From NCBI RefSeq assembly GCF_003334255.1, contig NZ_QOWU01000046.1: 43,525 bases of DNA; one strand, written 5' to 3'. The notes under the pieces are model-generated. The model made no database searches and was not told the origin of the DNA. It saw only the letters and a program-made list of their open reading frames with translations. Positions 31,564-34,409 of the stretch are shown piece after piece. Each line of letters begins with the position of its first letter. The stretch's first letter is position 1. The DNA comes from Escherichia coli (GTDB taxonomy: Bacteria > Pseudomonadota > Gammaproteobacteria > Enterobacterales > Enterobacteriaceae). Position numbers and translations under genes: made by a program.

Positions 31564-32325
31564 ATGTCGCTCGTTTGTTCTGTTATATTTATTCATCATG
31601 CCTTCAACGCTAACATTTTAGATAAAGATTACGCCTTCTCTGACGGCGAGATCCTGATGGTAGATAACGCTGTTCGTACGCATTTTGAACCTTATGAGCG
31701 GCATTTTAAAGAGATCGGATTTACTGAAAATACCATTAAAAAATATCTACAATGCACTAACATCCAGACAGTGACGGTGCCTGTTCCTGCGAAGTTTTTA
31801 CGTGCTTCAAATGTACCGACTGGATTGCTTAATGAAATGATTGCTTATCTCAACTCGGAAGAACGCAATCATCATAATTTTTCAGAACTTTTGCTTTTTT
31901 CTTGCCTGTCTATTTTTGCCGCATGCAAAGGTTTCATTACACTATTAACTAACGGTGTGCTATCCGTTTCTGGGAAAGTGAGAAATATTGTCAACATGAA
32001 GCTGGCGCACCCATGGAAGCTGAAAGATATTTGTGACTGCCTGTACATCAGTGAAAGCCTGTTGAAGAAAAAACTTAAGCAAGAGCAAACGACATTCTCA
32101 CAGATTCTTTTAGATGCAAGAATGCAGCACGCAAAAAATTTGATACGCGTAGAAGGTTCAGTCAATAAAATTGCCGAACAATGTGGTTATGCCAGTACAT
32201 CTTATTTTATTTATGCGTTCCGCAAACATTTCGGCAACAGTCCGAAGAGAGTTTCTAAGGAGTACCGTTGTCAAAGTCACACGGGTATGAATACGGGCAA
32301 CACGATGAATGCTTTAGCTATTTGA
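31564..32325 (+). CDS. ydeO: AraC-family acid-resistance regulator YdeO
   Basis: 253-aa ORF with a C-terminal AraC-type HTH (IAEQCGYASTSYFIYAFRKHFGNSPK). Confidence 0.9.
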   Translation: MSLVCSVIFIHHAFNANILDKDYAFSDGEILMVDNAVRTHFEPYERHFKEIGFTENTIKKYLQCTNIQTVTVPVPAKFLRASNVPTGLLNEMIAYLNSEERNHHNFSELLLFSCLSIFAACKGFITLLTNGVLSVSGKVRNIVNMKLAHPWKLKDICDCLYISESLLKKKLKQEQTTFSQILLDARMQHAKNLIRVEGSVNKIAEQCGYASTSYFIYAFRKHFGNSPKRVSKEYRCQSHTGMNTGNTMNALAI

Positions 32326-32373
32326 TTATTTGCTAACGAGTAGTCAACCACACACGCTGCGTAAGAATTAAAT

Positions 32374-32406
32374 GGGGCAGCCATTCCCTGCCCCGCGTTG
32401 TTTTTA
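32374..32406 (+). terminator. Rho-independent terminator downstream of ydeO
   Basis: GGGGCAG-ccattcc-CTGCCCC stem followed by GCGTTGTTTTT. Confidence 0.7.
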
Positions 32407-32726
32407 GGCGATATATTTATTGAAATAAATAAGTGACATCCATCACATATTTATGCACTTGCATAACCTGTTGCATGATTATTTATGATCTCAATTCTGC
32501 ATTTTGTCAGTAAAATGCAATAATTTATTAAATATCAATAAATTAGTTGTTTATCGGCGAGAAATTACTTAATAGAACAGAAAGTAATGTCAACGCTTTA
32601 TGGACTGTTTTTTCCCTTTTTTTAGCTAAATCTGCTATCTCTTTATGTGACTAACTTCACTTACATCCACTTATTTCTCTTCGTAAAATTACTTTGGAAT
32701 TAAGTACAATAAGAAGAGGAACATTT

Positions 32727-34409
32727 ATGAAGTCTGCATTAAAGAAAAGTGTCGTAAGTACCTCGATATCTTTGATACTGGCATCTGGTATGGCTGCATT
32801 TGCTGCTCATGCGGCAGATGATGTAAAGCTGAAAGCAACCAAAACAAACGTTGCTTTCTCAGACTTTACGCCGACAGAATACAGTACCAAAGGAAAGCCA
32901 AATATTATCGTACTGACCATGGATGATCTTGGTTATGGACAACTTCCTTTTGATAAGGGATCTTTTGACCCAAAAACAATGGAAAATCGTGAAGTTGTCG
33001 ATACCTACAAAATAGGGATAGATAAAGCCATTGAAGCTGCACAAAAATCAACGCCGACGCTCCTTTCATTAATGGATGAAGGCGTACGTTTTACTAACGG
33101 CTATGTGGCACACGGTGTTTCCGGCCCCTCCCGCGCCGCAATAATGACCGGTCGAGCTCCCGCCCGCTTTGGTGTCTATTCCAATACCGATGCTCAGGAT
33201 GGTATTCCGCTAACAGAAACTTTCTTGCCTGAATTATTCCAGAATCATGGTTATTACACTGCAGCAGTAGGTAAATGGCACTTGTCAAAAATCAGTAATG
33301 TGCCGGTACCGGAAGATAAACAAACGCGTGACTATCATGACAACTTCACCACATTTTCTGCGGAAGAATGGCAACCTCAAAACCGTGGCTTTGATTACTT
33401 TATGGGATTCCACGCTGCAGGAACGGCATATTACAACTCCCCTTCACTGTTCAAAAATCGTGAACGTGTCCCCGCAAAAGGTTATATCAGCGATCAGTTA
33501 ACCGATGAGGCAATTGGCGTTGTTGATCGTGCCAAAACACTTGACCAGCCTTTTATGCTTTACCTGGCTTATAATGCTCCGCACCTGCCAAATGATAATC
33601 CTGCACCGGATCAATATCAGAAGCAATTTAATACCGGTAGTCAAACAGCAGATAACTACTACGCTTCCGTTTATTCTGTTGATCAGGGTGTAAAACGCAT
33701 TCTCGAACAACTGAAGAAAAACGGACAGTATGACAATACAATTATTCTCTTTACCTCCGATAATGGTGCGGTTATCGATGGTCCTCTGCCGCTGAACGGG
33801 GCGCAAAAAGGCTATAAGAGTCAGACCTATCCTGGCGGTACTCACACCCCAATGTTTATGTGGTGGAAAGGAAAACTTCAACCCGGTAATTATGACAAGC
33901 TGATTTCCGCAATGGATTTCTACCCGACAGCTCTTGATGCAGCCGATATCAGCATTCCAAAAGACCTTAAGCTGGATGGCGTTTCCTTGCTGCCCTGGTT
34001 GCAAGATAAGAAACAAGGCGAGCCACATAAAAATCTGACCTGGATAACCTCTTATTCTCACTGGTTTGACGAGGAAAATATTCCATTCTGGGATAATTAC
34101 CACAAATTTGTTCGCCATCAGTCAGACGATTACCCGCATAACCCCAACACTGAGGACTTAAGCCAATTCTCTTATACGGTGAGAAATAACGATTATTCGC
34201 TTGTCTATACAGTAGAAAACAATCAGTTAGGTCTCTACAAACTGACGGATCTACAGCAAAAAGATAACCTTGCCGCCGCCAATCCGCAGGTCGTTAAAGA
34301 GATGCAAGGCGTGGTAAGAGAGTTTATCGACAGCAGCCAGCCACCGCTTAGCGAGGTAAATCAGGAGAAGTTTAACAATATCAAGAAAGCACTAAGCGAA
34401 GCGAAATAA
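32727..34409 (+). CDS. ydeN: Periplasmic sulfatase
   Basis: 560-aa ORF. Start chosen at ATG 32727 (MKSALKK..., AGAGGA RBS 6 nt upstream) rather than the upstream TTG; signal peptide plus sulfatase-family features. Confidence 0.88.
   Translation: MKSALKKSVVSTSISLILASGMAAFAAHAADDVKLKATKTNVAFSDFTPTEYSTKGKPNIIVLTMDDLGYGQLPFDKGSFDPKTMENREVVDTYKIGIDKAIEAAQKSTPTLLSLMDEGVRFTNGYVAHGVSGPSRAAIMTGRAPARFGVYSNTDAQDGIPLTETFLPELFQNHGYYTAAVGKWHLSKISNVPVPEDKQTRDYHDNFTTFSAEEWQPQNRGFDYFMGFHAAGTAYYNSPSLFKNRERVPAKGYISDQLTDEAIGVVDRAKTLDQPFMLYLAYNAPHLPNDNPAPDQYQKQFNTGSQTADNYYASVYSVDQGVKRILEQLKKNGQYDNTIILFTSDNGAVIDGPLPLNGAQKGYKSQTYPGGTHTPMFMWWKGKLQPGNYDKLISAMDFYPTALDAADISIPKDLKLDGVSLLPWLQDKKQGEPHKNLTWITSYSHWFDEENIPFWDNYHKFVRHQSDDYPHNPNTEDLSQFSYTVRNNDYSLVYTVENNQLGLYKLTDLQQKDNLAAANPQVVKEMQGVVREFIDSSQPPLSEVNQEKFNNIKKALSEAK

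Follow-up and report, generated by a model that had tools for sequence, protein, structure and literature searches.

Part of a TGCA palindrome cluster upstream of Escherichia coli ydeN coincides with a published footprint of GadX next to a CRP site

The feature considered here lies in the ydeO-ydeN spacer of Escherichia coli, where the gene order is ydeP-safA-ydeO-ydeN-ydeM-yddA. Around it, the window (the whole 43,525-nucleotide stretch of DNA that was analysed) has the same sequence as K-12 MG1655. The spacer is 401 bp long, with a GC content of 27-32%. The ydeO gene ends at 32325 and is followed by an intrinsic terminator, a stem-loop with a T run on the plus strand at 32373-32405, and the cluster of TGCA sequences discussed below is found just 3' of this terminator. 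On the other side of the spacer are the sulfatase gene ydeN (32727-34409, plus strand, ATG at 32727) and then ydeM, the gene for an anaerobic sulfatase maturase. YdeN and YdeM are a poorly understood pair that may help E. coli to use sulfated host glycans. A promoter scan places the ydeN core promoter, CTTACA-18-TAAAAT, at 32660-32697 on the plus strand, about 200 bp farther 3' than the cluster, and we take 32697 as the transcription start because of the distances to the start site given for both GadX peaks by Seo et al. (2015). A PhoB ChIP-seq site, TGTCAAAAATCAGTAATG, at MG1655 position 1581949 (about 33302 in the window), falls inside the ydeN coding region and is considered intragenic and inert by its authors. 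We considered whether the spacer might encode something itself. An Rfam search of the region gave no match at E <= 1 and its predicted RNA fold is not significant (z-score -1.66), which leaves a structured RNA or sRNA unsupported, as is a small protein, given that the only open reading frames in the spacer are short ones of 22-35 amino acids.

Palindrome 1, TTATGCA-ct-TGCATAA, occupies 32451-32466; a third element, TTGCATGA (GTTGCATG when read with the preceding G), is on the plus strand at 32471-32478; and palindrome 2, TGCATTTT-gtcagt-AAAATGCA, is at 32498-32519. All three had been pointed out in a first-pass annotation made from the letters alone, and we confirmed them at those positions, an inverted-repeat search recovering both palindromes. 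The five TGCA of the spacer all fall within 69 bp. They form the densest cluster of the 43.5-kb window, in which no other 69 bp hold even four TGCA. None of 5000 dinucleotide-preserving shuffles of the spacer reproduced a five-TGCA cluster (the mean total being 2.45), while 28 of 300 whole-window shuffles (about 9%) contained a cluster of at least five at some position. The excess of TGCA is real locally and modest after a look-elsewhere correction. The spacer is also rich in inverted repeats generally, with eight perfect 7-mer repeats where 0.56 would be expected (P ~0.001).

The strongest palindrome of the spacer is one that the first-pass annotation had missed. It is formed by ATAAATAAGTGA-catcca-TCACATATTTAT at 32425-32454, with 12-nt arms, is much stronger than those of the TGCA cluster, and overlaps the start of palindrome 1, sharing its first four bases. 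Enclosed within it is a distal CRP site, ATAAGTGAcatccaTCACATAT, at 32429-32450 (centre 32439.5, about -257 from the transcription start), with a score of 31/36 that is among the four best in the window and a match of 9/10 to the TGTGA-N6-TCACA core. Published data support CRP binding at this position: a Footprint-seq preprint reports taTGTGAtggatgTCACTtat, which is the sequence of the distal CRP site on the other strand, at MG1655 position 1582815 with a Kd of 1.8 nM in vitro, and assigns it to ydeN. The gene is also among the targets in a CRP gSELEX list and ranks first among the CRP sites predicted by a semi-supervised method. A second, proximal CRP-like site, TTATGTGActaactTCACTTAC, is found at 32643-32664 (centre 32653.5, about -43.5, a class II position; score 28/36), and does not appear among the novel CRP sites with a Kd below 10 nM that the preprint tabulates. 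The site, TGTGActaactTCACT, varies at only one of 16 positions among twelve Escherichia sequences. TGTGA-N6-TCA together with an AAAAT -10 is kept 5' of ydeN in E. albertii and is recognisable in Citrobacter (werkmanii). Elsewhere in the window, at 6735-6756, there is a strong CRP site, GAATGTGATCGTAATCACGTTT, identical in sequence to the Footprint-seq 'yneE' site, for which a Kd of 0.7 nM is given.

Seo et al. (2015) mapped GadE, GadW and GadX by ChIP-exo at pH 5.5 and used ydeN as an example of repression by GadX (mode 'Rep'), the delta-gadX strain showing a log2 fold change of +0.60, or about 1.5-fold, at that pH. Two GadX peaks in their Supplementary Table 3 belong to this spacer. Positions in U00096.2 were converted by subtracting them from 1613275, the ydeN ATG being at 1580548 in U00096.2 and at 1582524 in U00096.3. 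Peak P10 (1580799-1580824; -233.5 from the transcription start; signal-to-noise ratio 13.7) then corresponds to 32451-32476, and peak P9 (1580632-1580662; -69; signal-to-noise ratio 8.3) to 32613-32643. When the same conversion is applied 10 kb away, GadE peak P3 falls at 43100-43131 and brackets the gadB GAD box TTAGGATTTTGTTATTTAAA at 43107-43126; the hdeD and gadE GAD boxes were used as further checks. P10 extends from the first base of palindrome 1 through the TTGCAT of the third element and begins 1 bp past the distal CRP 22-mer, while the last base of P9 is the first of the proximal CRP site. The bordering of both footprints on the inner edges of CRP sites could reflect contact between GadX and CRP, or exonuclease stops at bound CRP.

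The first-pass annotation had proposed that the repeated half-sites form a binding-site array for an unidentified regulator of the sulfatase operon. A regulator does occupy the distal part, where P10 covers palindrome 1 and TTGCAT, but the proposed array falls apart at palindrome 2, which is unconserved and under no reported peak (Supplementary Table 3 of Seo et al., 2015, has no GadX ChIP-exo peak there). The regulator hardly deserves to be called unidentified, as GadX occupancy and repression, repression by AraC and binding of CRP have all been published for ydeN.

What in P10 is recognised by GadX is less obvious. The best match inside P10 to the GadX/GadW motif AKGKCTGWTWTTWWYMYVAK is a poor 12/20, and the flanking matches of 16/20 and 14/20 are no better than chance would give (P = 0.37 for any match of at least 16 in shuffles). 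As a positive control, the best match in the window (19/20, AGGTCTGATTTTTACGTGAT, at 42959-42978 upstream of gadB) sits at the junction of the published GadX peaks P6 and P7. P10 alone of the 22 GadX footprints examined has TGCA repeats. TGCA does not occur at all in the 923 bp of 20 other GadX ChIP-exo peaks, and thus the TGCA half-sites are not a general determinant of GadX binding; the one feature common to P10 and other GadX peaks is a loose GCATAA, which is also in gadB P6. Since P10 has no GadX motif and no other GadX peak examined has TGCA, we can only infer which protein reads the TGCA half-sites. GadX may bind P10 in a non-canonical manner or may be held there by another protein.

This raises the possibility that the half-sites are read by some other CRP co-binder in the style of the anti-activator CytR, with the GadX signal being indirect or additional. 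CytR is the best alternative reader we can propose, and the lack of GadX motif support in P10 is in its favour, but we regard the proposal as quite unlikely. The CytR octamer GTTGCATT is matched at 7/8 positions by GTTGCATG (32470-32477) and at 6/8 by CTTGCATA. Elements 1 and 3 resemble inverted boxes of the type AYGTGCAAC-N10-GTTRCATT, their 10-bp spacer being within the 10-13 bp class found by SELEX (Sernova & Gelfand 2012). The TGCA elements abut a strong CRP site, as they do in nupG, cdd and udp, where the operators contain TTTATGCAAC, GTTGCATAA and TTTGCAA. The ydeN site thus resembles the CytR-CRP cassettes (deoP2, udp, cdd, nupG) in having TTGCA-type half-sites directly beside a CRP site, and its half-sites have almost the same sequence as in cdd (GTTGCATAA) and udp (TTTATGCAAC). 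Against this, a canonical CytR cassette is flanked by two CRP sites at a distance of 52-53 bp and lies at -40 to -95 (Sernova & Gelfand 2012), whereas the ydeN site has one real CRP site and lies outside that range with its TGCA module at -220 to -260 from 32697, and ydeN is no nucleoside gene. The second CRP candidate, 52 bp farther 3' at 32481-32502, scores 18/36, which is background. The left CytR box matches at only 5/9 positions, octamers like those of CytR are common (2.7 per kb in the window), and our literature search found no paper linking CytR to ydeN. With respect to spacing, elements 1 and 3 form an inverted pair separated by 10 bp and elements 2 and 3 a direct pair separated by 4 bp, although the motif is too weak for this to discriminate.

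To examine conservation, we aligned eleven E. coli of diverse lineages, a cryptic-clade Escherichia and E. albertii, and scored variability on the twelve Escherichia sequences other than E. albertii. Across 32406-32726, 65 of 321 positions vary. In the distal bound half, only one of 22 motif positions is variable, compared with four of six positions in the spacers between the elements. Within palindrome 1 the arms vary at one of 14 positions and the spacer at both of its two; TTGCATGA is invariant over its eight positions, while the 4-bp gap before it varies at two; and the distal CRP half-sites are invariant at all ten positions, while the CRP spacer varies at three of six. The cryptic-clade sequence, with an overall divergence of about 14%, differs from the window over 32443-32496 only at the two spacer positions of palindrome 1 (P ~0.02 before multiple testing). 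The limitation of variation to spacers is a pattern that would be expected of a contacted site, although the statistics are post hoc and weak.

Outside Escherichia the distal module is not found. In E. albertii its local alignment scores 22, no better than chance (21.5 +/- 3 in shuffles), and so says nothing on conservation; ydeO-safA-ydeP is absent 5' of ydeN in this species, its place being taken by a fragmented, divergent autotransporter-like gene together with a spacer of some 700 bp (positions 1-3000 of the sequence compared). In Citrobacter, Cedecea, Leminorella and Mixta the distal module has no counterpart, and the proximal promoter is the only part common to them. Within E. coli, an ST131-type haplotype has the right arm of palindrome 1 broken by a change of TGCA to TTCA and is found exactly in 560 genomes (about 10%).

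Palindrome 2 is in fact the most variable stretch of the spacer, with nine of 22 positions varying among the twelve Escherichia sequences. Most lineages have GGCATTTT...AAAATACA in this region and BL21-like strains have GGCATTTT...AAAATGCA, while both TGCA ends are present only in the K-12-like lineage, a K-12 55-mer over palindrome 2 being found exactly in 1177 of 5426 complete genomes (about 22%). The changes that make the palindrome in K-12-like strains are 32498 G to T and 32517 A to G, and since these two SNPs of the K-12 lineage supply the TGCA ends, palindrome 2 is the product of two recent point changes and, judging from the alignment, is a neutral lineage-specific accident. The ancestral cluster was smaller, with three TGCA in 22 bp, the two TGCA of palindrome 2 being confined to the K-12-like lineage.

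These observations bear on another alternative, that the cluster has no dedicated function and consists of chance TGCA in an AT-rich, palindrome-rich spacer that is probably bound by H-NS or IHF, with the GadX peak being weak, inert or a bystander. We think this unlikely. In its favour, about 9% of whole-window shuffles reach a five-TGCA cluster, palindrome 2 shows that such palindromes arise via neutral SNPs, the spacer has a low GC content (27%), the conservation statistics are weak, the effect of delta-gadX is small, and the ST131 lineage tolerates a broken arm of palindrome 1. On the other hand, the borders of the ChIP-exo peak agree with the element base for base, variation is restricted to the spacers that separate its three parts, and the cluster was never reproduced in the 5000 local shuffles. 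As for the proteins that might coat such a spacer, the IHF core consensus WATCAANNNNTTR has an exact match, TATCAATAAATTA, a candidate site at 32533-32545 on the plus strand (one of six in the window, where 2.65 are expected), which varies within the twelve Escherichia sequences only at its N positions 32540 and 32541. The same 13 bp also match the H-NS nucleation motif TCGATAAATT at 9/10.

Another possibility is that the elements are parts of a second, upstream ydeN promoter. Shimada et al. (2014) give TTGTCA-16-TATTAA for the ydeN spacer, which we place at 32504-32531, over palindrome 2, and relative to a start near 32531 the distal CRP site would lie at about -92. TTGCAT as a -35 and the extended -10 TGcAATAAT at 32516-32524, from the A-to-G change in K-12, are further candidates for promoter parts. 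We nevertheless consider an upstream promoter very unlikely. The promoter scan found the proximal promoter only, the start site of Seo et al. (2015) is 32697, and RNA polymerase gSELEX peaks, converted from U00096.2, are nearer 32629-32725. TATTAA and the corresponding AATAAC of the cryptic clade both lack the -7 T, and no -10 is found 16-18 bp from the TTGCAT hexamers. The 32517 A to G SNP does create a TGn extended -10-like sequence, TGCAATAAT, at 32516-32524.

Several other regulators were considered. The NsrR motif is an 11-1-11 inverted repeat of AAGATGCATTT. The NsrR 11-mer AANATGCATTT matches at 8/10 at both 32494 and 32512, but these single boxes are on the K-12-specific arms of palindrome 2, with a spacing 7 bp wider than that of the 11-1-11 repeat, and we rejected an NsrR site on account of the lineage-specific arms and the wrong spacing. 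YdeO might come to mind as the product of the upstream gene, but no YdeO box (inverted ATTTCA, 9-21 bp apart) is present, there being a single TGAAAT at 32421 with no partner, and none of the seven targets of YdeO in ChIP-chip is ydeN, so YdeO was rejected as well. Together, we hold NsrR or YdeO sites to be extremely improbable.

AraC has a better claim on the operon, though not on the cluster. AraC is reported to repress ydeNM in the presence of arabinose (Stringer et al. 2014), and the AraC ChIP-qPCR amplicon JW393/JW394 of the Wade laboratory corresponds to 32590-32685 in the window. The AraC site presumably lies somewhere in this interval, which differs from the TGCA cluster. A scan with the AraC consensus TAGC-N7-TCCATA, allowing up to three mismatches, was at noise level (304 matches, 297 expected). 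The best local match to AraC near the cluster is 7/10 and falls outside it, with no TCCATA B-box there, and AraC was rejected as the protein binding the TGCA cluster. The best, though still weak, AraC-like half-sites in the promoter region, TAGC-N7 boxes at 32621-32639 and a TCCATA at 32599-32604 on the minus strand, are overlapped by P9. AraC control of ydeNM is thus comparable to that by GadX in that the same operon is repressed by a protein of the AraC family, and P9 is within the AraC amplicon and over AraC-like boxes.

On balance, we think that 32451-32478, that is, palindrome 1 together with TTGCATGA, is probably a distal operator of ydeNM for GadX, an acid-resistance regulator of the AraC/XylS family. 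The ydeN promoter would be a class II CRP-dependent promoter, with the CRP-like site at about -43 and TAAAAT as its -10. GadX would most likely serve as an anti-activator of CRP, acting from -69 and aided by the distal site, a role we propose because each GadX footprint abuts the inner edge of a CRP site; a loop of about 165 bp might connect the two GadX sites. In the presence of arabinose, AraC would exert a repression of its own through the promoter-proximal region. Palindrome 2 has no part in this mechanism. Several points stand against a GadX operator: the repression is small, the signal-to-noise ratio is moderate, the promoter is distant from a site at -233, the arm is broken in about 10% of genomes, and the conservation is statistically not decisive.

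That GadX, AraC and CRP are regulators of ydeNM, and where the GadX footprint lies, was published beforehand. What is added here is that this footprint consists of a set of TGCA palindromes directly abutting a CRP site and that the second palindrome is, on comparison of lineages, a neutral accident of one of them. With GadX already mapped over the first TGCA palindrome, no unidentified regulator needs to be invoked. The control region as a whole is crowded: it contains two CRP sites and two GadX footprints, is a target of AraC, and has sequence resembling IHF and H-NS sites. P10, which lies against a CRP site and lacks a GadX motif, may be useful as a test case for anti-activation of CRP by AraC-family proteins, although it does not constitute a new kind of system.

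The nearest comparison is with the GadX/GadW operators of the acid-fitness regulon (gadBC, gadA, slp-dctR, gadE and gadW), where the same protein was cross-linked. The width of P10 (26 bp) is close to the mean (28.7 bp), and these operators likewise have several footprints per promoter, distal ones (gadBC, -184 to -268) and AT-rich surroundings. The ydeN site differs from them in that GadX represses a CRP-dependent operon of a catabolic type. It belongs to the class of distal GadX footprints by occupancy and not by sequence, and its layout is like that of a CytR-CRP cassette except that the defining geometry of two CRP sites is lacking.

In a more elaborate scheme, the three TGCA elements would serve as the operator for an additional protein (CytR or something similar, or a different one) docking on CRP and tethering or cooperating with GadX, giving a CRP-GadX...GadX-CRP loop. 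We give this scheme little credence. If it were true, the repression loop would integrate carbon, acid and arabinose signals at ydeNM, and, separately, the palindrome and extended -10 made by the K-12 SNPs would rewire the promoter in roughly one in five E. coli.

Finally, our searches turned up copies of this region in other settings. The 5' region of ydeN is matched on plasmids at eight places in E. coli genomes; a 101-kb plasmid (NZ_CP195943.1), for example, has the last 100 bp of the spacer together with a sulfatase gene. A 13-kb contig binned as Candidatus Nanosynbacter (JARKOR010000108.1) encodes a YdeN protein 100% identical to that of E. coli and has a ydeO-ydeN spacer of the E. coli type, and is almost certainly a mis-binned E. 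coli contig.
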